From Takakia lepidozioides (lineage: Eukaryota; Plantae; Bryophyta): a stretch of 64,000 nt of DNA. The DNA is taken from positions 41,602,001 through 41,666,000 of the forward strand of contig CM060734.1 of NCBI GenBank assembly GCA_030704615.1. Reading direction: 5' to 3'. The position numbers and the translations under genes were made by a program. Below, one piece after another: positions 8,660-40,200 of this stretch. Under the pieces are notes generated by a model. The model was not told where the DNA came from and searched no databases. It saw nothing but the letters and a program-made list of their open reading frames with translations. Within the stretch, counting starts at the first letter, position 1; each line of letters starts with the position of its first letter.

Positions 8660-9104
8660 ATAATTTTTTTCTCTCACTTTCAAAACAAAAACCACAAGTG
8701 CTAAAACTAAACTCACCTCTAGCACTCACAGATGCAAATTCATCTCTCTCGAGTGATATGAAAACTAAACTCACACTGTTGACACAAGAACATGAAATAC
8801 AACACCATCACTCGTTAAACTAAGAGTCGAGCCAGAGGCACCCCAAGCTATGGGGACTCCACCCCACAACATCTTATTCTCTTTTCATAAGCACACTCAG
8901 ATTCTAAGCAGTGAAGGAGCTCGGTCGTGCAGGCTCAACTCGAGAGAGATGAGCCGCACGACTGACACTCTCGTGAAGATAAGATGGTTCAGGTGTCAAG
9001 CTAAACTTGACACCTAACTTAACACTTGAACTAAATCCAAGTGTTAAATACAAATAACTAGCTTTATTTTAGTTAGTTTCACATTGTGTTTATTTAACTT
9101 GACA
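8660..9104 (-). mobile_element. Isolated 5' end (repeat A1 8754-9104 plus self-priming PBS 8740-8753) of a split-repeat Gypsy-like element, subfamily 2
   Basis: Minus strand starts TGTCAAGTTA like 15980 and ends CATATCA followed by CTCGAGAGAGATGA. Nearly identical to 49931-50208. Leader homology to about 16290-16360 (tagcacttgtggtttttg). Confidence 0.85.
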
Positions 9105-12449: not shown

Positions 12450-15400
12450 ATTTCAGAATAAACAACATGCCTATTGTAGTTTCTAGTCTGAACAACCTGA
12501 GAGTCCTAAATGTTATGCTTAGCAGTTTCTAACAAATGCAAACGATGGGTAGTGAGTTGGGTGAGGAATTCTTCCCTTATGACTAGCTCCTCAACCTGAG
12601 TGTCTAGCACAGGAACATGAAGAGGTGTGCGGCCCTTACGACCGTACAACAATTCAAATGGTGCAAAACGAGTACTGGCATGTACAGAGGTCCTATAAGC
12701 AAAGATGAGAATGGATAGAGTAATATCTCACTCTTCAGTGAGTGCACCGTTCTTCTCCAATAATTGGCACATCGTCTTGTTGAACCTTTCAGTAAGCCCG
12801 TTGCATTGGGGTTATAGGGAACAGTCAAGCGATGTTTGACATCTAAATTTAAACACACAACCTCCATCAACTGGTTGCAAAACTCCGTACCCTAGTCAGT
12901 GAGAATTTACAGGGGACAACCATGGCGTAACAAGATTTCATCAAAAAAAAATTGAACCACCTCGTCGCTGTCCTTAGCAATCAATGGTCGAATCTCTACC
13001 CACTTAGACAGGTAGTCAGTAGCCACACATATGTAGCTATTGCCCTTTGTCGTAGTTTTGAGAGGACCGACAAGATCAAAACCAACCCTGGCAAACATCT
13101 TAGTCACAAGAATTGGTTGAAGTTTAAGAGGAGCCACGGTTCTAGGCAACAGGATTTTGGACTTACATGGAGCATACTTAGCAATGAAGTCCGTCACATC
13201 CTTGATTAACCCCTTCCAGTGGTATTTTGCCTAGAGTTTTTTGACAGTTTTGTCAGCACCCAAATGACCAGCATAAAGAGAGTTATGGTAAAGCTAGATA
13301 AGCAACTTACCTTCATGGGTAGATGCAGACTACACTGACTCAGTTTGGACTGCAATTTGCAATTTTCGACTGAACTGCTTGTCATATTATTCATCACCAT
13401 ATACACATAAGTATATATTCATAGCAAATGGACTTAGAATGGGTTAGCCACTTATCATATGTACATATGGGTACAATTATTTTGGAATTTGGATGAAATC
13501 TTATGAAGCTATGGACTTTCGCAGGGAATTCCAATGGACTGTTACAGTCCATTTACTGTCCCAAATGCCATCTGAAAAACCTATTTATGTAAACCAATTC
13601 ATTATATGGACTTTACAACTAGATACACAATGTTTGAATAGATACAAATATAAATTTGTGAACAATTCCATCCATCCATCAAGACACTATGGATTTTTTT
13701 GTACAAAAACAAAACCCCAAAATGACGATTTGTCCATGGCATTTTGAAAATTCATATTTCGGTGGAGATTTTTGCTAAGAATATATATATATATTGTTAT
13801 TGTCTCTAGGAGCTTATTGTTATATGGACAAATTTCATAAACTACAAGATAATAATAAATAGCTATTATTTCATAAAATTGTTTTTAAATATATATATAA
13901 TAAAAACTATCTTAAATATTTGGGATGAGATCATTTACTAAATATGATTAGTATACCATTACCTATGAAGATAAAAATATATTTGAACAAATATCTTTAA
14001 TTAAAATTTAATTATTTTTTTCTCATGGACTTTCAGTGAAGGGCACATCTGCCGCTTTTGAGCCAGTGTAGTCTGCACTTATCCTCATGCTCCCGATAAG
14101 AGGGGAGATGATAGTTTACTTGCCTGAGGGTACAGGAAGAGAGGCCCTGCAGATGAGTGTTGGTCTTACACTTCTACAGGAGGGCTTTGTGTAGTAGATC
14201 TTCCACGTCTGCAGCCGCCATAGCCAGCCCTTAGGTTAGTGTGAGCACATAGGGAGTGTCCGCCTCAGTGAACTTCATAGCAGGACTTAGCAAGAAGTTC
14301 GGGCAAATAGCAGAAAACAGCAGGGTACTAAAGAAAGAATGAGAAGTATCATACCTGGAAGATGACATCAGGAATATGACAGTACTCTATGAATTCTCTA
14401 TCCAGCAACAGTGGCAAACAAGGCTAGCAAATCTGGACCATCAAAACCAGAGGAAGGCATAGGTGAAATGCCAGAGGGAAAACACTTAGCAAGATCATCC
14501 AAAGAAGCATAAGGAGTAGGAGACTTAGGCTCGCTTCGTGTATGAGCATCAGCATTGTTGTTGGCATTGCCCTTCTTGTATTGAATATCATACTCGAACA
14601 TTTAAAGAGTTGAAAACCGGCAAGCCAGGCGACCCGAGAGCTCATCATGAGGGGTCTTGAGAGCTTTTAAAGGCAGATGATCAGTCTGAACAACAAAAGG
14701 ACATCCATGAAGGTATTGCCTGAAATATTTCACCCCAAAAATGCACCGGGTAGAATCACATGTCGCCCAGCGATTTAGGAAAAGTGAAAAAAAAAAAACA
14801 CTGATGAACATTGCATTAATAAACCAAAAATATTATTATTACAAAAAAGGTAAAACAAAGCATAATATGAAAAATCCCAAGAATAATATATGAAGTTAAT
14901 GCACGCATGCGATCTCTGACAAAATGGTAGGCTGATCTTCGACATATTGAATCTTCCCCGACCTCTCTTGAGAGTGACATGGAACTGAAAGGAGTATAAT
15001 TTCAGCCTAGCTAACAATGGATTACAAAGAGAGGGATTATAAACTCTGGTCGGGGTTTACACGGTGGGGGAGTGTAATTCCACTTGTGATTACATTGAGT
15101 TACACGACAAGAAGTGTAACTCACACTTGGTCTCGAAGTTTGATTAAGTCCAAATTTGACTAAGTTTAAAATGGAATAAGCGGAGTTACACAATAAAGTG
15201 GGGTGACACATTCAAAGGCATCGGTTTGTAAGATAAAGGGCTGGGAAAAGTTAGGAAAGACTAGAATGAGCGCATTTGTGAGAGCAATCTTAAGTTGTTC
15301 AAAGGCAGTGATTTATGAACGCCCCCAAAAAAATCGAAAATCTTTGCATAATAAGCGATTGAGTGCAGTAGCAATATGAGCAAAGTGCTTTATAAAACGA

Positions 15401-15979
15401 CGGTAATAGGAAGCTAACCCCAGAAAGGCTCGGATATAGTTCTTGTCACGAGGGGTGAGATACTCCCAAACCGCCTGGATTTTGGCAGGGTCAAGGCTGA
15501 TGCCTTTGGCACAGAGCAGGTATGTGGCAGGTATCCAAGAAAGTGAAGCTTCGTCATGCAAAGGTCATGCTTTTTGGCCTACACTTTTAAACCAGCTCCT
15601 CTAAGCTTGCAGATCACTCTTTTAAGATCCAACATGTGAGCATCAAAGCCAGCTGAATAAACGTTGATGTCATCAACGTATACCAATGCACATTCCCAAT
15701 GTAAGTTCCCAAGCACCACATCCATGAGACGTTGAAAAGTGGCAGTGGCATTACACAAGCCAAATGGCATGGTTTCAAACTGAAATAGACCCATCTTACA
15801 GGTGAAGGCAGTCTTTTCCTTGGCAGAATCTATAAGAGGAACCTGCCAAAATCGCGCAGCAAGAGAGGAGAGTAAAATAGCACCATTGAGTTGATCCAAG
15901 GTATCATTGATACGAGGTAAGGGATATATATCATTTTTGGTCAAAGCATCAAGATGTCTGGAGTCAACACAAAAACGGG
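12450..15979 (-). pseudogene. Host Gypsy pol relic (RT C-terminal part, RNase H, integrase)
   Basis: ORF fragments 15579-15944 (YPLPRI, MPFGL, YVDD), 15313-15561 (FLGLASYYRRFI), 12907-13197 and 12604-12870 (integrase core); many stops and frameshifts. Confidence 0.9.
13328..14073. mobile_element. Non-autonomous TIR element (TGCA-target family), copy 2
   Basis: TIR gactacactgactca / tgagccagtgtagtc (14 of 15 match); TGCA on both sides (13324-13327, 14074-14077); AT-rich interior; inserted just upstream of the host integrase zinc finger. Confidence 0.85.
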
Positions 15980-16275
15980 TGTCAAGTTATTTTACCACTA
16001 GTGTGAAACTAGCTAGGAAATAGCTAGCTTTTACATATTGACATTTGGGATTGGCCCAAGTGTCAATCCAGGGGTCAAGGCAGATTTAGGCCCTGGAGTG
16101 GTTATCTTCACGGCAAGCGCGGAAGGCTCATCTTTCTCGAGTTGAGCCTCACCGCGCCTAGCTATGGCGCCGTAGTGTGGATTCCCCATGGCGTGGGGTG
16201 CACTTGGCTTGACTTGTATTTGAGTGATGAGGTTATATATGCATGAGCTTGTGCTTGTATTCTTCTTCTTTATCA
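15980..16275 (+). repeat. Terminal repeat A1
   Basis: Matches 26776-27102 except one substitution and a 31-bp indel between gcatgag microrepeats. Confidence 0.95.
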
Positions 16276-16291
16276 CTCGAGAAAGATGAGC
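16276..16291 (+). promoter_or_regulatory. Putative self-priming primer-binding site
   Basis: ctcgagaaagatgagc directly after ...TATCA is the exact reverse complement of gctcatctttctcgag at 16126-16141; no TGG-type tRNA PBS. Confidence 0.75.
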
Positions 16292-17819
16292 TCGTATCTG
16301 TGAGTGCCAAATACGAGTTAGTTGTAGCACTTGTGGTTTTTGCTTGAGAATGAGAGAAACCATGTTGTTATGCAAGGAGCACCGTGGAGCTCTTGGTTGT
16401 TAGAAGCGGAGGCGATGTGGGTTACGAGGTGGTAAACCTTGGCATGCGATCTTCAGCTTCAGAGATGAAAGCACCATGCTGCAGGTAATTCCAGAGCACC
16501 TTGATGGTTTCAGATTGTGTACATGCATGAGCAAGCACGATTGGGAAGAGGACCAGTCAAGAGCAGGTTATAGTGACTTTGGTGGCAAAGCTGAGAACTG
16601 GACTTGGGAATGCGAGATTTCATTGTGTGAAGGATTGCAAGACCAAGCGAAAGGGCTGATTTGGCTTGGGGCAAATCAGTGCACTTTGTGGAGTATGGTG
16701 AGATTGGGTTTCAATCTCGAGCTTCAGCATTGAGAGGGCTTTTGGCATGGCAAGAGCAGGGCTGGAACAGGAGCTAAGAGGTGCGGCAAGGCCATGGAAT
16801 GTGCACCTAGGGTTTCAGAGCTTGGAAGAAGAGCTCTTGCACCACAAGAGAAGTGTCTTGTGGCTGGAAATGTAAGCCTTAGGGTTTTAGGAGCTTGGCA
16901 AAGGCTGTGGAGTGCTTAGTCTTGTCTTAGAGAGTATCAAGGAGCCAAGGAGCCAAGATAGGGGGCTGATATCTCTTGTGTGAAGAGGTTGCATGTGTGG
17001 AGCATGTATTCAACTCATTGAAGCTTCCATCTTCAAGCTTGGAGGGCAAGCAAGGAAGAGGGAAGGGCTGACTTCCCTTATATGAGGGCAATGCATGTGT
17101 GGAGCATGCTATCAGCCTGGTGAAGGCTTGCACTTTCAGGTGTGGGAGTGCAAGAAAGGAAGGAAGGGGCTGGTTTCCCTGTAGGGCATGTGGAGCATGC
17201 TTTCAGCCTGCTTTCAGCCTGCTGAAGCTTGTATTTTCAGGTTTGTGGGTGCAAGAAATGAAGCAAAGGAGCTGATTCTCTTATGGTGAGAGTGGGGCAT
17301 GTGTGGAGCATGCCTTCAGCCCATTGAGGCTCTTGTTTTCAAGCTTTAGAGAGCTAGAACGGAAGGTCTAGGGCTGGTTTCCACTTGGAGTGAAAGAAAA
17401 GCACTTGTAGGGCCTATGTGAGTTGGGGTTTCAACTTCAAGCTTGAAGGGAGCGCAACTCTTGAAGCAGCAGGTGTAGGGGGCTGGAATAGGCTCTAAGA
17501 CAGATGCTATGGCCAAGGAGAGTGCTTGAATGAGTGCTCACAAGGGCTGGGAACCAGCAGGGCTTGGTTGTTTGCCATTGAGTTTAGTGGCGTGTTTGGG
17601 GAGGCTAAGCGAGAAAGAAGGCTTGGTTTGTGGCAACCACCTCATGGCTTAGGGCTACTATGGTGGTGTGTGGGAGCCAAAAGAGCAAGAATACCTTGCT
17701 GATTTCCTCACAGCCGCCATAGCTCGGTGGAAAGAAGCCTAGAGTCCAAGAGACACAAACCCTAACTTGGCGTGGCTAAACCCCTTGGAGAAATGGCTAA
17801 ACTGCCAGAGCGGCCATGG

Positions 17820-18470
17820 ATGGGGCTGTGACGGGCTGTGCCTGAGGCTGTGAGGGGCTGTGACGGGCTGTGAGGGGTTGTGACAGGCTGTGCCCGTGGC
17901 CTTTGGGGCTATGAGGGGCTGTGACAGGCTGTGCCCAGTGGCCTGTGGGGCTGTGACGGGCTGTGACGGGCTGTGCGAGGCTGTGACAGGTTGTGCCCAG
18001 TGGCCTGTGGGGCTGTGAGGGGCTGTGAGGGGCTGTGACAGGCTGTGCCCATGGCCTTTGGGGCTGTGATGGGCTGTGAGGGGCTGTGACAGGCCGTGCC
18101 TGAGGCCTTTGGGGCTGTGACGGGCTGTGACGGGCTGTGACGGGCTGTGACGGGCTGTGCCCAGTGGCCTGTGGGGCTATGACGGGCTGTGCCCAGTGGC
18201 CTGTGGGGCTGTGATGGGCTGTGAGGGGCTGTGACAGGCTGTGCCCGTGGCCTTTGGGGCTGTGAGGGGCTGTGACAAGCCGTGCCTGAGGCCTTTGGGG
18301 CTGTGAGGGGCTGTGAGGGGCTGTGAGGGGCTGTGACAGGTTGTGCCCAGTGGCCTGTGGGAGTGTGATGGTTGTGACCAGTGAGCTGTGTGGGCCTGTG
18401 CTGGTCTGTGGTGGCCCGTGTTGACCTGTGGACGGCCTGTGCTGACTCGTGGAGGCACTGGTGGACTGCC
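17820..18470 (+). repeat. G-rich minisatellite (10-mer gggctgtga[c/g] with higher-order units) in the element leader
   Basis: Many (g/c)gggctgtga units interspersed with tgtgcccagtggcct[g/t]tgggg. Confidence 0.95.
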
Positions 18471-19115
18471 TAAGGACTGGCATGTGGTCTGGAAGGCCGA
18501 ATTTTGAAGCTCGTGGAGGGCGGTTTGAGGAGTATCTTCATGATATTCCCATGGTCATGCAAGTGAGGGAAGAGAGGAGAGGAAGAGTGTTGGGATGAGG
18601 GCATGCTGGGGTTAGGCATTGCTTTAGCTTCTCTTCCTCGTAGTTTCCACCCTCTCATTAGGCCAAGACCTTTCCGTAGGTGGAGGCAAGAGTCAGTCCG
18701 GGTTTGGGCTGGGGTGTCCTTGCAGGAGCAACACCGTGGAGTTGTTTTTGGTGTGGGGGAGTTGTCGTTCTGATTTCTTGTGTTTGGATCCCCTCCATAC
18801 CTGCATGCTTGACTGTGCGCCACGCTAGTTTTGTGTGGGCACTTGTTTTTATAGGTGATTGGTCCGGATTTGATCACCGGCCAGTCCTAGAGCATGCTGT
18901 CGATGGTGAGGCTGGGGTGATGACCAGCCAGACCATCATTGTTTCTCCTGTGGTGAGGTTGGAGGTGATGACCAGCCAACCATAGGAGTGCTTGCGGTGG
19001 ATGCAGGTACAGGTGTAGGCTATGTTAGGAACTTAGTATTCCAAACCATAAGCCGCAACAGGTTCTCTACCCGGTTACCTTGTGGAGAGGGGGTTAGGGA
19101 CATGTTCATGACCGG

Positions 19116-21806
19116 TTGAGTGTCAACACGGAGGTACCACTAGTTGCTGGGGACAGTGCCGGTTCGAGCACTAGCGATACTAGTGGGTACACGAGACGAG
19201 GTGTGCGGTTTAGGCCACCTTCACCTCCTGTGTCTTCCACGGAAGGTTCTGATTCGGATTGTGAATCAGGAGGACTCATACCGGCGGTGCAAGTTGTTTC
19301 TTTGCCATTGTTGTGGGACACAATGGAGGAGATGTATGGAGCTACCAAGGGGCCACGAAGGTACTCTGGGGCGGTGGGCACCATCGAGTTGGATGATTTT
19401 ATCCAAGAGTTTGATAGTTGGTGTGATTTGCAGCAAATGCGCAATCCACAACTATTTACGCCGTTCATGGCATGGAAAGGGCTGTTTCAGCATCTTGAGG
19501 GGCCGCCTATGGATGATTACCATGAGTTCAGGCGGGGGCATGAGGTTGAGATCGAGGAGTGGAGGATGTACTGGTCACCCGACTATGTCTCCATCACTAG
19601 GGGCACTAGAGCCACGAAGGCAGTGGCTACACCTGCCGCTGCACCGGCAGCTTCAGCAAGTAGCAGTGGAACTAGTGGGACTGGTGGTACAGTAGCTACG
19701 ACGTCCACCTAAGCCACTACCGCACCAGCACTAGCACCCGTGCCTGCCTTCAACCCTGTTGTGGAGTTCTTTGAAGAGTTGAGAGGGAACTACTAAGGGG
19801 TGAGGACAGAGAAGTTGCGGAGCTTGCAAGAGTTCCAACGGAAGCCGACCGAGAGCTTGAGGGAGGCTTTCACTCGCATGAGGCGCTTGATAAATGTTAC
19901 GGAAGCTCAGGCAGTCCAATTCTGGTATGGGATATTGGACAAGGAGCTGAGGAGAAGGGTGCGGGATGCAACTCTCCTACAAGCGGCCCAACCCACCTTA
20001 GCAGATGTGTTTTTGCTGGCAGAGCGGATAGAGCTCAACATGGTGGAGGAACGAGTGGTCATGGCGGGATTTGCTAAGGAGACACCACGGGGTAGTGGTG
20101 CTCCTAGCCAACCACTACCTCAACGTGCTCAAGGCAACAAGGGGGCTCAGGTGAAGCTCAAGGAAGGGCAGAGAGGAACTCAGATGCAGGGGTCTCTCCC
20201 TTCATTTGCTGGCCAACAACAGACGGATGTGGTGTGCTGGACATGTGGAGGACCCCATGTCAAAAAGGATTGCCCAGAGGGAGGCAAAGGGTCGGCACAT
20301 GCACAGCCTGCACAGTTGCAGTGTGGGCATTGTGGCAAGCACGGGCATGGAGAGGCCCAGTGTTATGGTTTGCATCCTGAGTTGCGCCCAGGCCAGTTCC
20401 AAGGGAACAATGGTGGCCGGGGGCGAGGTGGAGCAGCCCAGAGAGGACGAGGTGGCCAGCCACGAGGCCAAGGGCAAGCTCAATGTGGCCAAGGACGCGG
20501 AGGTCAGGGTGTTGACCAAGGCATGGCCAACCGGCTTCAGCAGCTAGAGCAGAGGCTCGCTGCCATGGCTACAACTCAGGTGGTACCGGCTCTAAGGCCG
20601 GATGGTCCACCTCCTGCTCCTGAGGGAGGAGATATGGGAGGCATGGGATTCATGTGTGGAGCAGCACTACCAGTAGTGCAGGTGGAGTCTGCTGCAGCCG
20701 TGACTCGAGGAGCAGCACGAGTTCCTGAGCCACGAGGTGCAGAGGTGGAGTTGGATCCACAGCGTGGGGAGGCAAGCCGTCAGGCTAGGCTTCCTCAGTC
20801 ATTCACATTGGCGGAGACAGTGTCGACGCCATCCATGGCACCTAGTTCTCGCCCGACGGTTACCGAGGCAGAGGTTACTATGCCATTAGGGAGAGCTACA
20901 CGGGTAGCACCACTACCTAGTGTTGCCAAGGCTGCGGCAGCTAGTGTACTGCTAGGAGCGGCCACATCTGTGTGCCAGGCTCCATTGTTCTCGGCTACCA
21001 TGATTGCGACGCCGGGGGTAAAACCAGCTGAGGTGTTCAGGCTGGCAGCTACACTATGTGAGAGTGGGGAGGTTACTTCATCTTCTGCGGAGATAGTGGG
21101 AGGTGTAGTGCCGGAGGGATCCTCGGATTTGAGGGTCAAGACTGCCACGGCGGCGCCATGGCAAGCTGCAGCTGCCAGGTTGATGGAGCTGCCAGCTAGG
21201 CCAGCCATTGAGCACGCCATGGTGACACCTGGAGTTGTCATGTTAGACAACCAGGATGGCATTTTCTGTTTGAGTGGACCGGCAGGCAAGAGGTACCGGC
21301 CACTGCGGGTCTTGTTGGACTCGGGAGCTCAGCCATTGATGCTGGGCAGAGCTGCTATTGCAGGCTTGGGCCTCACGGAGGCGGATATGGAGCCTTGTCC
21401 TTTCCAGATACAGACGTCTCTGGGAGGATCGGAGCAGGCTCGGGGCATGACACGGCGTGAGTTGGCTATCAGACTACGGCCGGATCACCCTACAGATGGC
21501 TCAGTGATGCGAGCCAAGGCCATTGTGACAGACGCAGTCTCATACGATGTCCTGGTTGGTGGGGCAGTGTTGTACCCCATGGGCTTCACCCTGGATTTTT
21601 GGGAGGAGTCAGCTTCCTATAGGCCTGCATGGCAATCAGGGGAGGGCCGACGTGTGCAGCTCCCTGTGACGTTCATAGGAGGAGTTGCGGTTGCCCAGCG
21701 AGGCAAGATGCCGACACTAGCAGCATTCACAGCGGCAATGAGTTGGCCTAGAGAGTTGCTTGAGGGCAATGCTCATTCAGAAGATATACCACCTCTGGGA
21801 GAGTAG
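19116..21806 (+). pseudogene. Gag (two zinc knuckles) plus aspartic protease of the DNMT retroelement
   Basis: CWTCGGPHVKKDC and CGHCGKHGHGEAQC knuckles, an RGG-rich tract and VLLDSGA protease motif; in-frame stops at 19710 and 19794. Confidence 0.9.
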
Positions 21807-22028
21807 GATGACATGTATGGTATGGCGGAGTTGCCTACCATGGTTGCTCAGACTCCATTGTGGGGCACGAGCAAGGATTTGCAGCGGGATGCTGATCGAC
21901 GGGTGCAACAAGCCTGGGTGGAGGCTTTTGTACCGTCAGGAGAGGAGGAGAGTGTGGGGATTGCACCAAGACCACCTCAATTGTCTCCATTGAACACCAC
22001 ACCTATTGTGTGGCAGTATCCGGACGAA

Positions 22029-22990
22029 GGCATTTGTCTTCTGGACTTGTTTGGCGGGATCAGCACCGGATTGGCTGTTGTGTTACAAGCAGGTGTACGA
22101 GTTTGGCGTTACCTGTATGTGGAGAGGGATGAGACTGCACGACGCGTTTCACTTCGCCATGTTGCTCAGTTGGTGCAGCGGTACCCTGAGTTGTTGTCGG
22201 TGTCTGCAATTCGTGGATATCAGCAGGCCTTGCCAGCAGACATTTCGTTGCTGGGGGCGCAGGATTTGGAGCGAGTTGGCTCCATTGATCTGGTAGTGGC
22301 AGGTTGGCCTTGCCAAGGGCATTCATCAGCCGGGCATGGCAATGGATTGCGAGACTCGAGGTCGGGTCTGTTTTGGGAGATGGTGCGGGTTTTGCGCCAC
22401 TTGCAGCTTCATCAAGCTGTATCTCCAGCATACATCTTGGAGAATGTGCCACTGATGGACGATTCTCGGGCCAGGGTGATGGCCAGTGTGCATCAAGTCC
22501 GGTCGTGGCTTGGGTCAACAGTGTTGCTAGATGCAGCTACAGTGGGGTCACGGGCTCATCGTCCACGGCTATGGTGGACTAACTTGATGCCACCCGCACT
22601 GCTCAAGCGTGCATTTGATGGGGTGCAGCGGCCAGCACATCTGACAGTGGATAACATTCTGGACACAGGGAGGCAGTCTCAGCGTGTGAGACACGATGAC
22701 CGTTCGCCTTTGGCAGTGGTCAACAAGGTGGGTCAACCACGAGCAGCATTACCTACACTGCTCAGCTTCCCAGGATCGCATGCTTTCCGGGATAGTGGAC
22801 GTGGCCTCTTGTAGGATGCTCAGTTGCAGCAGTTAGTGGAGCCTAATGCTGACGAGCGTGAGCGGGCAATGGGTTTTACCACTGGTACCACGGCGGTGTC
22901 GTCTCTTTCTGAGGCATTACGTCGTCAAGTGTTGGGGCAAGCAATGGATCTCAATTGCTTGACCTGGATTATCAGCTTGGCTCTGGCTGA
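22029..22990 (+). pseudogene. DNMT3-like C5-cytosine DNA methyltransferase domain within the polyprotein
   Basis: Motifs in linear order: I LLDLFGGISTG, II YVERD, III ADI, IV AGWPCQGHS (catalytic Cys codon 22311-22313), V DSRSGLF, VI ILENV, VIII HRPRLWWTN, IX ERERAMGF, X RRQVLGQAM. Same frame as gag-PR; one in-frame TAG at 22812. Confidence 0.93.
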
Positions 22991-23379
22991 GCAACGCAGA
23001 GTGCGGAGTACTTCCCTCAATGGTCTCTCTGCCTACTGAGACGGTACAGGCAGTGAGTGGGGGCGAGCATGTGAGGACCACGGGGTGCATGCATCCATGG
23101 CACACGTGGGAGGTGCTCGAGGTTCAGAGGGAGTTGGCAGCCAAGGCGGCTGTGATGGATGAGGTTGGGGATTCTTCTCGGGTTGAGGAGGTCCTCAAGG
23201 ATGAGATGATGGGGCAGGATGAGGCCTTGTCATTGACTGAGCAGGCAGGGAGTACTGCTCAAGAGGTTGCAACATAGCAACCACTGGACGCGTCCTCTAC
23301 CTCTAAGCCCACTGGACTTAAGGTTGCAGTTACGGAGGACAATTGGGAGCCTGACATTGGACCCATTGTCACCGGAGGA

Positions 23380-26160
23380 GAGAGACGACGTATACGGCGG
23401 TTCCTGAGGGCTTACAGGAATTGCTTTGCCTTCAGTTTGAAGGACTTGGGAGCACTGAAGGGTCAAGAGATCCGTATTGAGTTGGCCACTGACACGCCAA
23501 TCTTTCGGAGACCCTATAGATACAGTGACATGGAGAGGTCTTTGATTCAGATGAGGACTCAAGATCTCTGGGAGGCAGGTTTGGTGGAGCTCTCTGGTGG
23601 AGAGTATGCTTCAGCCACAGTGATGCCAGCCAAGAAGGATGTCTATGGCAATTGGACGGAGAGACGTATGTGCGGTGATTACCGGCCTGTAAATCGTCAG
23701 ACCAAGTCCGATAAGTATGCCATGCCAACACCAGAGGAGATCTTTGATGCCATCGGGCATGCTAAGGCCTTTAGCACTTTGGATTTACGATCCGGATATC
23801 ACCAGTTGCCAATCAAGGAGGCGGACAAGCAGAAGACGGCATTCTGGGGGATCAATGAGCACGGCAAGGATTGCCTATATCAGGGCGGTTCTTACCATTT
23901 GGGCTTAAGAATGCTCCTGCAGAGTTTCAGAGAGTCATGGATAGGATTCTAGCAGGGGTGGACTTTGCTCGGTGCTACATAGATGACATCATCATCTTTA
24001 GTGTTACGATGGAGGAGCATGAGAGACACCTTCAGGTGGTATTGGAGCGCTTGAGAGCGCACGGATTGAAGTTGCATCCGGGGAAGTGCAAGTTTTTCCA
24101 CAACCAGATTGAGTATCTGGGTCACATGATATATCCTGGAGGATTGGGGGTACAGCAGACTAAGGTAGAGGCCATTGCACAAATTCCACGCCCCACGGAT
24201 GTGAGCCGAGTTCGAGCTTTCATGGGGTTGGCAAACTATTATAGACGGTTTGTCAAGGGATTTAGTACCATTGCAAAGGCTCTAACCAAGCTGACCAAGG
24301 TGGACCAGGAGTGGCAGTGGGAAGATGAGCAGGAACGAGCTTTTCAAGAGCTCAAGGCGAGGTTGACCTCGGCGCCTATCTTGAGACGACCTATCAGGGG
24401 GCGTCCCTTTCAGCTGCATACGGATTGGAGCATGTTGGGGCTTGGAGCGGTGCTCACACAGGTGGATGATGAGGGAAGAGAGTTCGTAGTGGCTTACGCT
24501 AGCCGCTCGAACAACGCTGCAGAGGCTAAGTACAGCTCATATGAGGGAGAGTGCTTAGCTGCAGTGTGGGCCGTGGCACACTTCAGGTGCTATCTATACG
24601 GCAATCTTTTCACCCTTGTCACGGATCACCAGCCACTCAAGTGGTTGATGGTGTCAGACAAGCTTGCGGGGAAGCTTGCACGGTGGGCACTTATACTCCA
24701 GGAGTATGACTTTCAGGTTGTGCATCGACCGGGTTTGGTCAATCGGGATGCGGATGGATTGAGTCGCAATCCATGCATGAGCCAGCAGGATGACACTGGA
24801 GCTCGGTGGCATGGTGAGACGGACGAGGAGATGGTGCCGGGATGGCACGCATCTGCATTTTTGTGTATCTTGGCATCGGAAGGTCAGATTGGACCTACAA
24901 CAGGGATGACTGTAGACGGAGTGTCTGAGGACCCTGAGGCTAGTGATGAGCTAGGTGGTGCCAGAGATATACATGAGGATTTGGCTGTGTTGGACTACCT
25001 CCGCACGGGAGACACGACAGCCATTGTGACTGCTAGGGAGAGGGATCGGATCCTGCAACGAGCCAAGAGGTTCAAGTGGGAGGGGATACACCTACTTCGA
25101 GTGTGGGAGGATGGTCGGGTGAGGATTGTGCTTCACCCCACACAGCGTGCACGGTTAGTGCGGCATGCCCATGAGGAGTTGGGGCATTTTGGAGTGCGAC
25201 GCACTCACAGTTTACTGCAGGGGCAGTATTGGTGGCGTGGTATGCATACAGAGGTGCAACAGTTCGTGGGTAGGTGCATGTTGTGTGACAGGGTGCGTGC
25301 TTCATTCAATGCCCCTACACCACAGTTGCATCATTTACCAATCATGGGATTGGGCTACAGGTGGAGTCTTGACTTCGCAGGACCGTTGCCACTGACTATG
25401 CGCCACCACAGATATGTGTTGGTGATGGTGGAGCACTTCTCCAAGTGGATTGAGTTGGTTCCATTGCCTGACAAGGCTAGTGATGGGGCTGCGTATGCAT
25501 TCTTGGATCGTGTGCTTAGCCGATTTGGTGCTCCAGCTGAGGTACTCACGGACCAAGGGAGAGAGTTTTTGGGGGAGTTTTAGGCTTTGTGTGATAAAGC
25601 CTTGATAGACCACCGCACCACTTCTCGGGATCATCCTGAGGCCGATGGCTTAGTAGAGAGAGTTGTTCAGACGGTGAAGAGGGGTTTGCGCAAGTATGGC
25701 TTGCAGAAGAGACACCTAGGAGATTGGGATCTTCAGGTTCCTTGGTTAGCCATGGGCTACAGGTTCAGCAAACAAGCATCACTTGCCTCCTTCTCACCAT
25801 ATTTCCTTCTCTTTGGTCGAGAGCTGGATTTGCCTACAGCCATTCGTAGGGACACTGCTCAAGTCCTTAACCTTGACGATCCGGACGTGTGGGTACGTGC
25901 ATGTGATCAGCGTGCAGAGTTGTTCAAGAAAGTCATGCCCATGGCTTTTGAGAACCTTGTCATTGCACAACACCGTGATACGTTGAGGTATGCCACTATA
26001 CGTGGTGGAGGATATCGTCCTGGGGTTCGGAGGTTTAGCCCTGGTGACTATGTTTATTTGCAGCAGACTGCTCCTACGACTCTGGATGTTACTGCAGGGC
26101 GTGTTATTCTGATGGTTCGAGAGGTGTTGCCCTCAGGGGTCCTGATCTTGGAGGGAACTT
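23380..26160 (+). pseudogene. Reverse transcriptase - RNase H - DDE integrase
   Basis: RMCGDYRPVN, LDLRSGYHQ, LPFGLKNAP, YIDD; LHTDWS, EGECLA, TDHQPL; HEELGHFG..CMLC, SLDFAGP, LTDQG, GLVERVV. Frameshift near 23880 and stop at 25581. Confidence 0.95.
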
Positions 26161-26185
26161 GGCAGTGGTACCTGCAGGTTTGAGG

Positions 26186-26329
26186 TGCATGCTCTGTGGG
26201 TCTGCCAAAGGGGCAGCCACCATGCTGGTGTGTGATCGATGCTCAAGGGGTTGGCATATGGGATGCTTGACACCACCTCTTGAGAAGGTTCCTGACGGAG
26301 ATTGGTTGTGTCCACACTGCTTGGGATAG
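26186..26329 (+). pseudogene. C-terminal PHD finger (C4HC3) after the integrase; not in the ORF track
   Basis: Manual translation CMLCGSAKGAATMLVCDRCSRGWHMGCLTPPLEKVPDGDWLCPHCLG*; now out of frame with the integrase (shift near 26155). Confidence 0.92.
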
Positions 26330-26574
26330 TGGCAGTGGACATGACTGGAGGCAGCTAACAAGACATGGGAGGCCAAGCTCATAGGAGTCAATACATGAGA
26401 TCCCAAGCTCAAGTTCACAGGTTGCAAGACGGAGACTAACGATGGGGCAACTCTTGCACCCGGCCTCTTGATCTATCGAGTTTGAGTGTGGGATAGTGGT
26501 GGAGGACTTAGTGAGGCTATGGTCACTATCACATCTTGTGGCTACCTGGACTTAGAGGGACCTAAGCACTAGCT

Positions 26575-26585
26575 AGGGGGGCGAT
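26575..26585 (+). promoter_or_regulatory. Polypurine-tract-like sequence
   Basis: aggggggcgat immediately before the TG that begins B1. Confidence 0.65.
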
Positions 26586-26773
26586 TGTGTGGACTAGTGA
26601 TTGCCATAGTGGGCAGCATAGTGGCAGCCTAGTGACTGACTAGTTGTAGCCTAGTGGTTGGATTAGTGGCTGGACTAGTGGTGGACTAGTGGTATACTAG
26701 TGTGTGGTGTGCACATGTGTTGTGTGGTTTTGGACAGCGATGTAGTTGTGTAGCGATATGTATGCGCACGACA
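26586..26773 (+). repeat. Repeat B1
   Basis: TGTGTGGACTAG...GCACGACA; matches 27104-27279 except 2 substitutions and a 12-bp indel in a ctagtgg array. Confidence 0.95.
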
Positions 26774-26775
26774 GC

Positions 26776-27102
26776 TGTCAAGTTATTTTACCACTAGTGT
26801 GAAACTAGCTAGGAAATAGCTAGCTTTTACATATTGACATTTGGGATTGGCCCAAGTGTCAATCCAGGGGTCAAGGCAGATTTAGGCCCTGAAGTGGTTA
26901 TCTTCACGGCAAGCGCGGAAGGCTCATCTTTCTCGAGTTGAGCCTCACCGCGCCTAGCTATGGCGCCGTAGTGTGGATTCCCCATGGCGTGGGGTGCACT
27001 TGGCTTGACTTGTATTTGAGTGATGAGGTTATATATGCATGAGTTTATGTTTCAGCTTTGTGAGCTCGCATGAGCTTGTGCTTGTATTCTTCTTCTTTAT
27101 CA
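26776..27102 (+). repeat. Repeat A2
   Basis: Direct copy of A1; joined to B1 through the palindrome gacagctgtc (26770-26779). Confidence 0.95.
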
Positions 27103-27103
27103 T

Positions 27104-27279
27104 TGTGTGGACTAGTGACTGCCATAGTGGGCAGCATAGTGGCAGCCTAGTGACTGACTAGTTGTAGCCTAGTGGTTGGACTAGTGGTGGACTAGTGGTA
27201 TACTAGTGTGTGGTGTGCACATGTATTGTGTGGTTTTGGACAGCGATGTAGTTGTGTAGCGATATGTATGCGCACGACA
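27104..27279 (+). repeat. Terminal repeat B2
   Basis: Direct copy of B1; ends the element, followed by TSD CGGG. Confidence 0.95.
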
Positions 27280-27283
27280 CGGG

Positions 27284-30200
27284 TGTAACCAAAGACAATT
27301 GGGCTGGCCCAGGGTGAAATAGAGGGCTTAATGACCCCTGCATCAAGCATCTTGGTCAGTTCACTTTGCATGATCTCTCTCTCTTTAACGCTCTCCCGAT
27401 AAGCATATTGCTTAACAGGGTTACCCTCAGTCACAATATCATGCTTGAGAACATCTGCATGACCTAAGTCATGAGAACCAGCACTGAAAACATCAAGATT
27501 GTCACGAATAACCTGATAAAAACGAGTCAGTGAGACTGGATCTCATTTTGATGTAACAAAGACCTGATCAAGATGAGCAGATTGTGCAGGGGTGAAAGGA
27601 CCAACCTTTTGCGCAACCACAACTTGAGCCAAGAGAGCAAGTGATCTACGGGGTCATCAGACAAGCCAATGTCAGCAAAATTTAGTGCATGCTAGACTTC
27701 TCCTAATTCAGCCAAAGGGGTGGCGGTGAGCCGTGCTAAGACCTGACCTTTGCAAATGGTAATAGATATGCGCTCTGGATTAGCAATCAAGAGTCTGAGC
27801 TCCTTTTTAAAGCCCTTGTCTAAAACCCTAGATGCAATCAAGCAATGGGGTAAGTGTAGGCTAAGGTGGCTCAGTTTGGACGTCACACTGCAGTTTTTTC
27901 AACGAGTGCTCTTTATATTATTTGTAATATTGTGCAAATAAGTTTATCTTCATCCCAAATGAGATTGAATGTCGCTAGTCATACATGTTGGTATTATTAT
28001 TTTGCAAGTTAGATGATTTTTCATGGAGCTATGGACTTTTTAGGACTTGCATTCTGGGCTGTCACATTCCCAGTTTGTCCACAATTGGACTCTCAAACAC
28101 TAACTTGCACTTAGTCATTTTACATATGGACTCCGAATATAGATTACCGTTGAAGAATAAGAGATATGGATGAATTTGTAGACAATTTCATTCATTTGTT
28201 AATGTGTTATGGACTTTTATATACCTCCAAATATACCCGAAATCTCAAAAGTCCATGGTGTTAAAAAAAATTCATATTTGGGTAGAACTCTTCAATGACA
28301 ATATAAATATTGTCATTATCTGCAAGTTTTTATAATTAGATGGACAAATGTCATATAGAATTGAGGACCTACAAATTCGTTTTTTTTTTAAAATTATGGA
28401 ATAATATTTATAATAAAAAATATCTCAAATATTTAGGATTGAGCCATTTACTAAAAGTGTTAGGCATATTGTTATCTATCAAAGTAAAATATATTTGAAT
28501 AAAAAACATAAATTAACTTTTTGCCCATGGACTTTCATGGAGGTCACATCTGCCGTTTTTAAGCTACCTGATTCTGCACTCACCCAGTGCTTAGATAGCA
28601 TCAAATGCTTCCAGCCCTCTACTTCAAGAAAGCTGCCTTGTGGACAGAGAAAGGTAGGTCCAAGGGAAACAATCTTTTGAGAAGAAGTATGAATGACAAA
28701 GTCAACAGGGTTTCGTAGGAGAATAGTGTTACTTGGAATGGAAATGGGAGCTCCACTCTTCTTGCCAGGTAAAGGTGGATGCCACTCATACAAGGTGGAA
28801 GGAGCAGTTTTGGTGAAGTTGAAGTACCTGGTCCAATTATACTGCTCACCAACATGCCTTTTGGCTTCAACAGCAAGAGCACTCATGTGGGAGAGATGAG
28901 CAGTAGTACATCCCGCTGGTAGGGAGGCTGAGTTAAGCTGTATCTTGTGGGGCGGGGAAGTTCCACTGGCAAGCCACATGATGTTTTCGACCACATCAAA
29001 CTTGGCCCCTGCGGCACACATCCAATCCAAACCCAAAAGCAATTACTCCCCTATGGTAACAATGCAAGTCAATGTAACAGACTTGCAACTGCCCTTAATA
29101 TGAATGGTGACCAAGCCAAGTGGTTCATAACGCGTGCCATTTGCAATGGTCACCTGCAGACCCATGGCGGGAGTTAGTTTTAAACCAAATAATCTAACAA
29201 TTGATAAAGGCACAGCAGACATGGTGCAGCCCGTGTCTACAACACAGGGAAATGAAAGATGCCATATGTGACATTGTGCCATGAGAGGATGCACTATTTC
29301 CTTTCTAAGCTTCCGGTTGGCCTCACAGTGCATCAATTTAAACTCATTTGACAACATCACAGAGACAATCTAGCTACCTTGGTCAGGGTTTTTTTTTTTG
29401 TTCGTTTGGCCCCTTTACGAACGATCGCCCTCATTTAAAGGTTGCTTACCTTTTCTCTTTCTTGGTGCGCATGTATTCTTCTATCATGCCCGGAACCAGA
29501 TCCGCATAGTTACAAAACCTAGTCCAATCAAGAGATCCGCAAATGAAGCAGACAACTCTCTTACCCTTGACCTCATACCATTTTCCCGTATGAGTGTGAT
29601 CACGATGGGAATCAGGAGGTGGTGCCTTAGCAAGTGGTGAGCGCCATGACCCCTCAGTACGAATTGCCTGAAGCCGAGTGTGGAGCTCTTGCTGCAAGGT
29701 CTTGACCTCATCAAGTAGGGTTGGAAACAAGTTTGCAGAGCCTAAGCGTGCCATCCTCTCATCCATCATTTCAACCATGTGTCGCTTGTTACGATAGGGG
29801 TGTTTTTGTACGTATACCTGATCTGAAGCAGGCAAGCCAGTGATGAAATAAGTTTTGAGATTGGACGTGCGCTCGGAGAAGATCATTTGCTCGGTGGTAC
29901 GTGTAGCCCTCATGGCTAAAAATCGATCCGAGCTTTGGCATTTTCTAGGAGAAGTGGTGTACATGTTGCACAAGCAACGGTTTGTGGGATCTTACGATAT
30001 TACTGATTGGGAGAACGAGCTCCGACCAGTGCTGCGCCGAAGAGGAAGGTGACATCTTTCATTTTCTGATTCACTATATGCCTGTGACTACTCGTTCTGG
30101 TAAGGAGTCGTGGAATGTCTAGGATGATTTGGACGATGTAGATCTCACTGAGCATGTCAAAGTTGATGATGAGGAGTCCCCTGATCCCATGTCAGAGGGT

Positions 30201-34900: not shown

Positions 34901-36329
34901 GTCTGGCAGTTGATAGCATAGATCAGGATTAGATCTTGCTTGGTCGGGCCTCTATTCTTCCCCTCCATCTTTTTACTATTTTCATTACTTTGTACTTGTA
35001 GTTGCCAAAGCCTCTCTTGGTGGAGGCCAGTTAGTACAGGGTTTTGGGCTGGGATGTTTTGCAGGATCAGCACTGCAGATGGATTTTGGTGTGGGGGTGT
35101 TCATGTTTTGATTTCTTGTGTTTGGATCCTCCCCAACGCCTGCATGCTTGACTGTGCGCCATGTTGGTTTTGTGTGGGCGCTTGCTTTCATAGGGATTAG
35201 GCCGGATTTGATCACCGGTCAATCCTAGAGTATGTTGTCGGTGGTGAGGCTGGAGTGATGACCAGCAAGACCACCAATGTTTCTTCTATGGTGAGACTGG
35301 GTTGATGACCAGCCAACCATAGGAGTTCTTGTGGTGGATGCAGGTGCAGGTGCCCTGAGCCACTGGGATATGACCCTTAAATTGCAACAGGTGCCCACCC
35401 GTGTCACTATTAGAATTAGTACTAGAGCCTTATAGTGTCACGTAGGGGAGGTGCACGTTGTGAGTGTCATCACGGAGTTACCCAAGGGTTTTGAGGGGAG
35501 TACGACTATAGGCAGTAGCAGTGAGAGTGGGTTCACAAGACGAGGTATTCGGTTCAGACCACCTTCACCTCCACCCTCGACTACAGTAGAGTCCGACACA
35601 GATCCGGAGGCTTCATCAACGTGGGTGCAGTTTTCTTCGCCATTATTGTGGGACGACATGGAGGAGATGTATGGAGCTACCAAGGGGCATCGTAGGTACT
35701 CTGGAGCTGTGGGCATAATCGAGCTGGATGATTTTATCCAGGAGTTCGACAGCTGGTGTGATTTGCAGCAGATGCGCAATCCACAGCTGTTCACCCCATT
35801 CATGGCGTGGAAGGGATTGTTCCAGCATTTGAAAGGCCCGCCTATGGACGATTACCACGAGTTCAGGCGAGGACATGAAGCAGAGATTGAGGAGTGGAGG
35901 ATGTATTGGTCACCTGACTACGTCTCCATTACTCGAGGCACAACGCGACCAGTAGCGGCATCAGCACCAATATCTCCCACGGCCAGCACTAGTAGTGGAA
36001 CAAGTAGAGTCGGTACTTCTGCAGAAGGTGCTACTACTTCTCCTGCCACGACTACAACACATGTGCCTAGATTCAGCCCGGTGGTGGAGTTCTTCCAAGA
36101 GTTGCTGAGGAACTACGTTTTTATGACTTCACATATGACTATTTTTTCAGTCTTATATGCGTTCATGACTACATCACTCTGTAGTGAAAAAAACCCTGTC
36201 ATAGCGACTAGTCTTTAGGACTGCGTTTTGCAAGTCATATCCGTGACTGCTTACGTGGCACCTGGAGTCCTGCTGCAGAGAGGGTTGCAGTCACAACTAT
36301 ATGACTAATATATGACTACATTGTCTGTT

Positions 36330-36660
36330 GAGCGCTGCCTACATGGAGAGGCTTCAACGGGACACGTGCGCCACTGCGCAAGCGACACGTCATGCATTCG
36401 TCAGGGGATCATATGACTATATGTCTGCAAAGTGATGCCTACATGGAGAGGCGACGGATGGACACGTGCGCCACTGCGAATTTGACATGTCACGACTTCT
36501 TGCCATGATCGTATGACTACATGTCTGCACAGTGATGCCTACATGGAGAGGCGTTAGCGGGATACGTGTGCTATGGCAGATTTCACACGTGGTGACTACA
36601 TGACTCGCTCATATGACTACAAGGATGTCTACATGGAGAGTTGTTAGCGGGACACCTGTT
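36330..36660 (+). repeat. Four ~100-bp subterminal tandem units
   Basis: ctacatggagag...gacac(g/c)tg recurs near 36339, 36439, 36539 and 36629. Confidence 0.8.
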
Positions 36661-37278
36661 GCACTTGAGATGTGATATGTGGCACACAGACAAAATATAT
36701 GACTAGCATATATGACTACGGATCTTTACACGTGGTAAAAATATGGATAAAGAATGTCGTGTCATATACTGCCACGTGTTCTGGTTTGAGCAAGAGTGAT
36801 GTCACGTGTCATCAAGATTGTTTTCCGAAATAGTTTATATTTTTAATGTTTATATTTTAGTTTTTAGTTTTCATTTAATATTTAAAAGAACAGGGAGATT
36901 GCAGCCTTGGATTTTTTTTTTAAATGGTATTATTTTTAATATTATTATTTAAAATGAAAGTGAATTAAATGATTTAAAATCTTCATTACATGGTGAAATT
37001 CCAACATGAAAACAGAATGGATCCCTCCTGCATACTATCAACCACAAGGAGAATGAAAATAGTCAACTACAAGGAAATACAAGCCCTATAAATCACATTA
37101 CAAAAATCCAAATGAGACCAATGTCCCAATGGACACCTCAAAAGCCACAAGGTCAAAAAATCCATGCCTCAAAAGGCCCAGCAAAAAACAAGCAAGCCCA
37201 CACATGGGCTGAATTGTTGTAGCTAGTATGTTCTAGTGCTATTAGAATCAAGAACTCTGTTAAACAGTGCAATACTGA

Positions 37279-40200
37279 CTATCCCTTCTGCAGCTCCATA
37301 AGTTTCAGTAACTTTAGACTCCAAAGTGTTGTCTGGCCAACCACCTGCCCCAACTCGGTCTGTTTCCTAACACCATTCACATATGGTAGAGGGGTGTTAC
37401 TGACACATGTCTCTTTGATGTACACACAGGCATAATCAAGGGGCACAGCAGGGTACCCGTAACCCACCACAGCACCTTGAAGAGCAACAATCAGCCCTAC
37501 TCCACATTTCTTGCGTTTGGAGTTCACATCCAACAGCCGAACCTCGTCACCCACCCTGAACTGTGATCCCAACTCCACACAAAAAAAAACACGATGTGAA
37601 AACCCATGACATACACACGACTAGGACACTCAACATTTGCGAATTAAAGAGAGCCCCAAGGTTGGAAAAAATAAAACAAACAAGACAAGGGCCTGGACTT
37701 ACTCCATTTGCAGTCTCCAATGGTTGTGAGACCTCTTTTGGGGGGCTACTCGCCGGGTTGACATTCTTGCCCCTGGTCTGTACCGGCTTGTCGACAATAT
37801 CACCTTTGTTTGTCACAAGTTCATGTGTCACAAACCAGAGAACAACCAGGAAAGCATTGAGCAAACATGAATAGTGAATAGAAACAAAATCCAAGTATGA
37901 ATCAAACAAAAAAAACCAACATGAAAACTTGCAAAGAAAACCTAGCATTAATCAAGCAATCGAGGAGAAGCATCCAGGAAAGCAATGCAATGAATGAACC
38001 CACAAAATTGTAGCCTCTGGAGCATTGTCAGAATGTTTGTACCTTCACAGTAGCAGTGTTGTATGGTTGTTGTCCGAAAACAGGCTGAGACTCCAAAAAC
38101 TTGGGAATACTGGCAGCTTTCGATGCCTTCCACAAGAAAGGCCACAACACCTCTGTTAGATACTCATCAGTTGGTGAATCTGGTTGCACTTTCCATGGCT
38201 CTGGAAAAATCCCACTGAAGGGAGGATTGTTTGCCGCATTTCTTGGTGTGTCGTCAACAAGAACAGTGTCCTCATAAGTCCATTCTGGCCAGTCTGCCCA
38301 CACTCTAGACAAGTTCTTGAAATATAATGGCTTTGAATCAGACCCCTTACGGCATGGGAGGACTGGATCCTTGTCACAGTGAAGGGCATCCCACTGGAAA
38401 ACCAGCTTAGTGTGGGCTGCAAAAATATAATCCACCATTGGGAAGAAGTTGCGAGCTTGACAACAAGACCACACCGCCACCTCAAAGTGTTCAAAACACT
38501 TTTGCAAAAAGTCATAACAGTGTGGTCTCAAAACTACCATCTTCTTGCCACACATCTTCCCCACAAAACCTTTGGGAAGGGATGCAGGCCCATTAGCAGA
38601 ATGAAAAGATTCACATAACAGACCATTTAAGTCCAGAATTAGTAAATGCTTCCTCGTTGGTCCAGGAAGTAAACTGTCATTTGGCTTCAACATGTGAGCA
38701 GGAGAAATTAAAGCAACCTGCTTTTTGTTATGTCCCCGTCTGCATCTTCCTCCCCATTTAAACTCCCACATACCTGCATACCAGAATCCGGTGTGCCCGG
38801 CGGCTCTGTCATCATTGCCCCTTGGACTGCTACTGCCTTTGTACGTGGCAAGGGCTGAATTTCCACGTATACCTCACAGCTGGCCTTCCCTGTATCCTGC
38901 TGCTGCTCGGTCAAATTCAAAAGATCATCAGTGACAGGAAGACATAAGGGCTTAGAGTGAGGACCAGTTACCGTCTGAAATTGGGATTCCAAACATTTTG
39001 ATACTGTCACAGTAGACGCATCCATCGTAGATGTCACTGGTCCTGCGCCTGGTAGATTAATCCCCAATCTGGTCACAATGGCTTTCTGGTTCTCAATCAT
39101 ACTCTGCATCTGTAATTTTAATTCTGCCATGTCACGTCCTTGTGATTCCACCAGTTTGTCCAAGCCATCCATCCTGCCAACTACTGTAGAATATGCGAGA
39201 CTTCCCTCCTGCCAATCCATGAAAACTTGCCCCAGTATGAATCAAACAAAAAAAACCTAGCATGAACAACCATTGGAAAGAAAACCCAGGCCAAAAGCCT
39301 GGAAAAAAACCCTAGCAACCTATGATGCAGCAACCACTCTAGCAAACGTGGAAAACACACTTACCTGCCTGTCACTCCCAGCTGACAATCGTGACACTGA
39401 ACCCTCTTGAATTTCATATAATGTAGGAGGGCACCCTGATAGTGTTTCCTACAAATTAATCCATGCCACAAACAAACCCATGCCACAAGTCGTGCTTCCA
39501 CCATTGCCTTCCCACCACGGCCAGTCTTGGTAGGATTCTGAATTGCACCATTTGCCTTCTTCATGTTGCCCGACACTTTGTGGAACACCTCTGTCTGCCA
39601 GTAACTTACAAGCTTGTTCCATACCTCGTCAGATACAGTAATGGGTTTCCCCTTACCACCCAACCACGCAGTGTGTGCTTCATAACGCTGGCTCTTCATT
39701 ATTCTGCCAATTGTTTGTTTTAGGTGGAAGTCTTTTAACTTGTGTGGCGTATATGAAAATAGCTTAGCCAGGTGATCTCTGATTTCGTATGCAACTTCAT
39801 CAGGTTGGTTGTTGATGGCAAGGGAACAATCTAGCTTGCGATAAGCCTGTCCTTTAAGGGCAGCGTGCCATACATTCCGGGTCTGACCATACGGGGCTCC
39901 TATGGAGGAGCACCATATTGACCCTGACCATACTGAGTGCCAGACTATGGGTACTGAGGCATACCATAATAAGGTGGGGGTACTGGTGGCACAGAACCCA
40001 CAACGATGGGAGAGTTAGGGCCACCTCCTGCGTTCTTGTGGGCGCCATCTCCATTGCTAGCAGCAGGGATCGTGGATCCAGTGCGCTTGTGCTTGCCCTG
40101 AAAAGAAATTCCCCCAGTATAATGTGGGTGATTACACATACATATAGGCAGCAAGCAGCAAATCCTTGAATTCAATATAACAAACTGGAAGCACATATCA

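Follow-up and report, generated by a model that had tools for sequence, protein, structure and literature searches.

Split direct repeats and a proposed integrase site inside the long terminal repeat in a Gypsy lineage with PHD finger from green algae and land plants

A stretch of 64,000 nucleotides from the moss Takakia lepidozioides (GenBank assembly GCA_030704615.1, contig CM060734.1, positions 41,602,001 to 41,666,000; the whole stretch is referred to as the window) contains a defective copy of a Gypsy-type retrotransposon with a total size of 11.3 kb and split direct repeats, designated A and B. Positions below are those of the window, and features are on the plus strand unless stated otherwise. 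The order is CGGG, A1, internal region, polypurine tract (PPT), AT, B1, GC, A2, T, B2, and CGGG. By direct reading of the sequence, the left target site duplication (TSD) CGGG lies at 15976–15979 and is followed by repeat A1 (15980–16275), which starts with TGTC as the left attachment end and ends with TATCA. At the other side of the internal region, the PPT (26575–26583) and the AT that starts the plus strand (together 26575–26585) directly precede B1 (26586–26773, 188 nt, TG..GACA). B1 is separated by the GC spacer (26774–26775) from A2 (26776–27102), and the B1/A2 joint is the internal palindrome GACA-GC-TGTC (26770–26779, no strand), the putative integrase cleavage site. At the A2/B2 joint TATCA-T-TG (27098–27108, with 27103 as the single T), the end on the side of the primer-binding site (PBS) is fused with the PPT-side end. 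The terminal GACA of B2 (27104–27279) is the right attachment end, and the right CGGG occupies 27280–27283. The element therefore starts with the right half of the long terminal repeat (LTR) unit B-GC-A and finishes with its left half, and the GC is absent from both ends. The two complete terminal LTRs that characterize Ty3/Gypsy elements are not found here, as the element ends fall inside the B-GC-A unit. An earlier sequence-only reading had described the split repeats, the palindromic joint with element ends equal to it minus the GC, and the 4-bp TSD, and every coordinate was confirmed.

A1 and A2 differ by 1 substitution and one 31-nt indel, and B1 and B2 by 2 substitutions and one 12-nt indel. 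The 10-mer at the B1/A2 joint, GACAGCTGTC, occurs once in the window, compared with 0.05 occurrences expected from composition. The TSD length of 4 bp is within the 4–6 bp range of Ty3/Gypsy. The insertion site is the reverse transcriptase (RT) frame of an unrelated Gypsy host element on the minus strand; this host (12512–15979 and 27284–27542; 30–40% amino acid identity) is decayed. The element plus one CGGG is 11304 nt long, a multiple of 3, while the element alone is not; this length fits a 4-bp duplication upon insertion, with a chance value of one in three. A contig from an independent read set (run X1, record 7) spans the B2/flank junction with 0 differences, so the B2 end is not a misassembly. 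The depth of the family contig in X1 falls about 500-fold just past 27279, from ~570,000 to ~1,000, and the summed contig depth of the whole family is ~10^6, a figure that is not a copy number. The family thus appears to be very abundant with the B2 right end and very high-copy in the T. lepidozioides genome. The X1 contigs also contain a CA-AT-TG joint and have loose ends of the PBS and B-variant types; their flank junctions are unlisted, so that these ends give no count of end types.

Two other copies of the family are present in the window. The 5′ end of a second, diverged copy (8668–9104, minus strand) consists of unrelated flank, the start of A, and a self-priming PBS. A third copy, which has an internal deletion, is represented by its 3′ part (48366–50295), with a gag-protease piece, partial A, AT, B, and unrelated flank. 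At 50204–50295 this copy reads TATCA-AT-TG, then B, then the flank, and the A2/B2 joint of the 11.3-kb element is that joint minus one base. Both forms agree with the unprocessed type of LTR-LTR joint that had been proposed for this family. For the second and third copies, neither the opposite end nor a TSD could be located. Further gag/protease pieces of the family lie at 35004–35941 and 48366–49932, about 12 kb apart.

Directly 3′ of A1 is a PBS of the self-priming type (16275–16291). It is a perfect 17-nt complement of 16126–16142, the predicted self-primer and likely RNA 5′ end; A1 is likely to comprise distal U3 plus R-U5. The longest such pair in 30 shuffles was 10 nt, and the RNA fold has a z-score of −5.6. 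In the second window copy (at 9104), a compensatory change affects both sides of the pair. Matching pairs of 13, 15, and 12 nt are found at the corresponding relative position in the related loci L076, L058, and L078 (described below), so that the pairs in five sequences measure 17, 15, 13, 15, and 12 nt with shuffle maxima of 10, 11, 10, 13, and 11, respectively; the pair in L078 is weak. Priming by tRNA was rejected, as the 17-nt complement to a stretch inside A and the fold z-score favour self-priming; there are no tRNA genes in the window. The position of the PBS after A1 therefore stood as first read, and its type was refined from a tRNA site to a self-priming one. The Gypsy elements Tf1/sushi and Tcn1 likewise prime themselves, with a primer site that pairs with part of their own LTR (PMC6317226; here and below, published work is cited from the passages and legends available to us). 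With the PPT directly before B1 and the self-priming pair after A1, the LTRs expected from ordinary reverse transcription are B-GC-A, in agreement with the functional LTR first assigned.

The coding content is that of a Gypsy element. A leader with ~102-nt repeats (16960–17380) and a 10-nt tandem array (17800–18400), together 16960–18400, precedes a gag-like region with zinc knuckles and an aspartic protease motif, LLDSGA (19098–21803), which is interrupted by a stop or frameshift. The protease match is weak in this copy (E 0.03) compared with L076 (E 8e-4). Then follow a stop-interrupted C5 cytosine DNA methyltransferase (DNMT) with PCQ and ENV motifs (21807–23036; PF00145, E 2e-13), RT and RNase H (23278–24710) with a frameshift near 23860–23950, a DDE integrase with H2C2 and D, D-35-E motifs (25128–26180), and a frameshifted PHD finger downstream of the integrase (26186–26320; PF00628, E 9e-12). 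The order gag, protease, RT, RNase H, integrase is that of Ty3/Gypsy, with the DNMT inserted between protease and RT. RT–RNase H is likewise combined with DNMT in P0028, a protein from Marchantia (67% identity). The chromodomain of chromoviruses such as Tcn1 and Chlamyvir was not encountered; the PHD finger follows the integrase instead. The presence of a DDE integrase, claimed from the letters alone, was borne out: all three catalytic residues, D, D, and E, are conserved without exception in 32/32 aligned homologues, and the in-frame stop of this copy (25581–25583) lies between the second D and the E within the integrase core. Among solved structures, the L076 pol protein is matched best by Ty3 Gag-Pol 7q5b (E 7e-100) and by 4ol8. 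A tyrosine recombinase, of which the sequence-only reading had seen no ORF, was not found here either. At E values up to 0.05, tyrosine recombinase families matched none of the 74 window open reading frames (ORFs; at least 60 amino acids, both strands) and none of the 27 ORFs of L076, a relative whose gag-protease-DNMT and pol frames are open. PF00589 is absent from the domain lists of the best 120 of 1621 protein homologues.

Those 120 listed matches are mostly RT–RNase H–integrase proteins with PHD and often DNMT, and the sources named among them are Marchantia, Klebsormidium, Closterium, and chlorophytes. Seven loci, L075–L081, were obtained by protein profile alone. Both protein-found families whose contigs reach far enough beyond pol, L076/L077 (one family, about 66–72% amino acid identity) and L078 (41–49%), have PPT, a short B, and ACAGCTGT. 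L077 reads B1-GC-A2-B2-flank. L079 and L080 stop 0.4–0.5 kb past the PHD finger, before any LTR, and are uninformative on ends; the metagenome-assembled genomes (MAGs) containing L076 and L078–L080 held no further element ends. L075 and L081 are without the CA-GC-TG site. L076–L081 are eukaryotic retrotransposon contigs within MAGs filed as cyanobacterial, Mollicutes, Halanaerobiaceae, and Dysgonomonas, which is likely to be binning contamination. A metagenome scan for the 17-nt joint returned 73 loci, of which only L058 is related; the other 72 resemble the element neither in nucleotide nor in protein sequence and are chance matches. L058 shares 19 nt at the joint, no other nucleotide similarity, and 30–36% amino acid identity; as it was found via the joint motif, it is not an independent count. 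On its minus strand (6708–4435), L058 has the DNMT directly before the integrase with no RT–RNase H between, and an open stretch past the PHD finger. In scans of viral contigs, L074 was spurious, L075 proved to be a Gypsy element outside the clade of the window element, and 0/15 pattern matches were related. The distance from PPT to cut site, i.e., the length of B, is about 107 nt in L077, about 170 nt in L058, and 188 nt in the window element. An integrase tree (FastTree, 127 rows, with the host element as root; it excludes L081, which is too short, and proteins that lack an integrase) has a long-branched clade (SH-like support 0.897) of the window element, L076–L080, L058, and the DNMT-bearing Klebsormidium nitens protein P0048, with L075 outside. 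The tree contains one chromodomain-bearing sequence, and the window element falls outside it.

The layout is also found in Chlamydomonas reinhardtii. A repeat library of this alga (supplement of PMC9940879) was compared by eye and in part, and the following statements apply to the part covered. The motif ACAGCTGTC occurs at 16 places, and 9 of the 14 listed ones are about 50 nt from a G-run PPT. Gypsy-14a, -14b, -18, -21, and -7a/b (_cRei) resemble the window element in having PHD, PPT, a short B, CA-GC-TG, A, and an extra B at the right end; they differ in the length of B (51 nt, or 8 nt in Gypsy-7a, versus 188 nt) and are filed as ordinary LTR/Gypsy elements. The consensus sequences of Gypsy-14a and Gypsy-18 are complete and have the form A..B-GC-A-B, as does Gypsy-21, which was deposited in reverse. 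B measured 51 nt in the 8 instances counted despite diverged sequence, and the integrase motifs of Gypsy-14a match those of the window lineage. In Gypsy-7a, an 8-nt B lies between the PPT and CA-GC-TG and is repeated at the right end of the element, and neither RT-defined end has TG or CA. The legend describing this family states that its left LTR is without the final 8 bp and has no further remark on the layout; the family is actively transposing in laboratory strains, with 86 new insertions in strain CC-4532 (PMC9940879).

In Klebsormidium nitens, KnitGypsy-Dnmt3 was reported with DIRS-like A-coding-B-A-B repeats and Gypsy domains (de Mendoza et al. 2018, PMC5890265, legend of Fig. 4c). Two of its features, a C5 methyltransferase inside the Gypsy pol and A-coding-B-A-B repeats, are found in the window element. 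The main text of that paper uses neither “circular” nor “target site”, and the passages available are silent on the junction sequence, TSD, priming mode, and mechanism of integration. P0048, the K. nitens member of the integrase clade (48% identity), is KnitGypsy-Dnmt3 by assumption only. In the sequences covered here, the layout is real and seems to be lineage-wide.

The CA-GC-TG joint inside the LTR is kept across the relatives despite divergence of the repeats on either side. In the Chlamydomonas families and L077, the PPT-side end does not start with TG; it is therefore the internal joint, and not the RT-made ends, that forms the conserved integrase signature. Conservation of the internal joint without TG..CA being kept at the PPT-side and PBS-side ends is what use of the internal site by the integrase would predict, and supports it. 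Neither of the two findings that would have spoken against the sequence-only reading was made: there is no tyrosine recombinase in this copy or in L076, and no standard BA..BA copy among the informative ends, namely those of the three window copies, L077, and the Chlamydomonas consensus sequences as far as compared. We propose that this lineage of green algae and plants, a Gypsy group with PHD fingers and copies of the form A - internal - B-GC-A-B, probably integrates from end-joined cDNA that its DDE integrase cuts at the LTR-internal palindrome CA-GC-TG. The RNA would start inside A1 and prime on itself, and the PPT and self-priming pair predict a linear DNA with B-GC-A LTRs as the product. 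Joining of the PBS-side and PPT-side ends, of the kind found in 2-LTR circles, would then leave the scar observed as the A2/B2 joint. The integrase would cut after CA on both strands at the palindrome of the upstream LTR with a 2-nt stagger. This would yield a pair of CA-3′ ends, each with GC as its 5′ overhang, in the geometry of processed retroviral ends. Strand transfer with a 4-bp stagger would lose the GC at both ends and leave a 4-bp TSD, and both of these features are seen in the window copy. The 2-nt staggered cut at a palindrome of circular cDNA had been suggested in the sequence-only reading; it gains from the conserved joint, and the circle and the cut themselves are still inferred.

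Split-direct-repeat elements (PAT, Ngaro, VIPER, TATE, and TOC) have a tyrosine recombinase, use the internal B/A joint as the integration site, and are not known to leave a TSD; a DDE integrase, protease, or TSD is not known from the DIRS order of PAT/Ngaro. The window element shares the A1..B1 A2 B2 layout with these elements but differs from them in having a DDE integrase, a protease motif, a PPT, a self-priming PBS, and a 4-bp TSD, with no tyrosine recombinase found. It is Gypsy by protein content and not a DIRS-order element. Copy-out-paste-in elements of the IS3/IS30 type use a DDE enzyme on abutted ends a few bases apart in a circular intermediate. They differ from the window element in being bacterial DNA transposons with no reverse transcription and a transposase-made junction. 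A precedent for the chemistry is the integrase of HIV-1, which can cleave the palindrome at the 2-LTR junction on both strands, in each case after CA (PMC1905944), and retroviral 2-LTR circles can feed integration (PMC4372172). In HIV-1 and foamy virus, the junction between the LTRs is itself the palindrome, and its cleavage regenerates a normal provirus as a side route. The window element differs in having the site within the LTR and in retaining the LTR-LTR joint after insertion, and its route is seemingly the normal one. Tf1/sushi and Tcn1 are chromoviruses with ordinary LTRs, while the window element has a PHD finger and no chromodomain. The Troyka group was rejected on its CG..CG termini and 3-bp TSD (PMC12440569), as opposed to TG..CA and 4 bp here. 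The REXdb survey, whose clades include Phygy and Selgy, does not mention PHD in the passages available, and its elements were chosen by LTR-FINDER with two LTRs and TSDs (PMC6317226).

Several points weigh against the proposed route. The circle, the RNA ends, and the cleavage step are all deduced from sequence. The main weakness is that a symmetric 2-LTR circle with two equal palindromes should also yield A-B-GC-A..B copies, of which there are none among the few informative ends; an asymmetry is therefore needed. Only one TSD was observed, and its borders have chance-level matches (A on the left, TGT on the right). The RT-defined LTR of the window element (26586–27102) is itself TG..CA, so canonical ends exist in this family and some copies may use them. 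In the cleavable junction of HIV, which is sensitive to sequence, CA and TG are four bases apart (PMC1905944); the spacer here has two. Gypsy-7a appears to be tRNA-primed with the PHD before the integrase, and may be a sister lineage. The support of the integrase clade is moderate at the value given above.

We consider a different route to the same cut site unlikely. Here the RT would jump from the finished right end onto the left end, B would be copied by strand displacement, and the cut would be made in a coupled, nicked intermediate with no free covalent 2-LTR circle. End-to-end jumping is a property of other RTs. Such a route would explain why only the A..B-GC-A-B form is seen, and it accommodates the mostly precise A/B joints (third window copy, Gypsy-18, and Gypsy-7a) and a B length that seems constrained within a host (51 nt in the 8 Chlamydomonas instances). 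The imprecise joints resemble sloppy end joining instead: 1 nt is lost in the window copy, and an inverted internal piece lies between A2 and B2 in Gypsy-14a. The repeat layout alone, being that of split-direct-repeat elements (PMC5890265), would also fit replication of the PAT/Ngaro kind, in which the RNA runs from A1 to B2, the B1-A2 joint templates circularization, and the DDE integrase substitutes for the tyrosine recombinase at the B/A junction. We regard this as improbable: the PPT exactly before B1 and the conserved self-priming pair exactly after A1 place the start of the RNA within A and fit priming of the canonical type. In addition, PPT-side bases are retained at the A2/B2 joint, and RT and RNase H are nearest to Ty3 among solved structures.

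A tyrosine recombinase acting in trans from a DIRS/PAT-type element, with the integrase as a passenger, is very improbable. The layout and the slight likeness of the target A-CGGG-TGT to the joint A-GC-TGT are in its favour, but the DDE and H2C2 residues are conserved lineage-wide and the element and L076 yielded no tyrosine recombinase. Moreover, a 4-bp duplication with the central GC lost at both ends is not a known crossover product of recombinase chemistry. Least credible of all is a single change to an ordinary LTR element (LTR of A-B or B-A form) by deletion, tandem insertion, auto-integration, or misassembly. The copy is old enough to have several stops, frameshifts, and two repeat indels, but like ends are found in two other window copies, L077, several Chlamydomonas consensus families, and Klebsormidium, and the X1 contig crosses the B2/flank junction unchanged.

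Elsewhere in the window, a CACTA-type transposon (38028–44660) with Transposase_21, DUF4218, Transposase_24, and an NIF phosphatase-like ORF lies within the ~12 kb between the two gag/protease pieces. Four diverged tandem units of 100 nt are at 36322–36682, and coding pieces of a cytochrome P450 are on the minus strand at 54956–56851. A PPR gene of the PLS-DYW type (60036–62999) has six near-identical 303-nt units (76–100%), and an inverted fragment similar to it is at 4254–4590.

The sequence-only reading knew of no such route for Gypsy elements and was unaware that the layout is already in print for Klebsormidium (PMC5890265). The literature searched gave no account of the joint, TSD, or mechanism for a Gypsy element with the A..B-GC-A-B layout. 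Repbase Reports, the REM1 paper, and Craig's 2021 thesis lay outside this search and may describe it. The parts available of bioRxiv 2022.05.23.493040, PMC2836005, PMC2774666, and bioRxiv 2026.05.21.726589 had nothing on the layout.

Linear cDNA is the accepted integration precursor of LTR elements, and 2-LTR circles are regarded as dead ends or a minor reserve (PMC4372172). On balance, we lean towards the view that an old and large Gypsy lineage of chlorophytes, charophytes, and land plants has moved its attachment sites to an LTR-internal palindrome, with obligate integration from a circle junction by a restriction-like 2-nt staggered cut. Such a route would stand half-way between retroviral integration and circle integration of the DIRS or IS3 type. 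Tools that demand two terminal LTRs and TSDs are likely to miss or mis-bound elements of the A..B-GC-A-B form. The mechanism can be tested now, because Gypsy-7a of Chlamydomonas has the layout and transposes in laboratory strains. If the proposal is true, the lineage would be a natural system with circles as the integration substrate, and would show how split direct repeats can develop out of a standard LTR element with no tyrosine recombinase involved.

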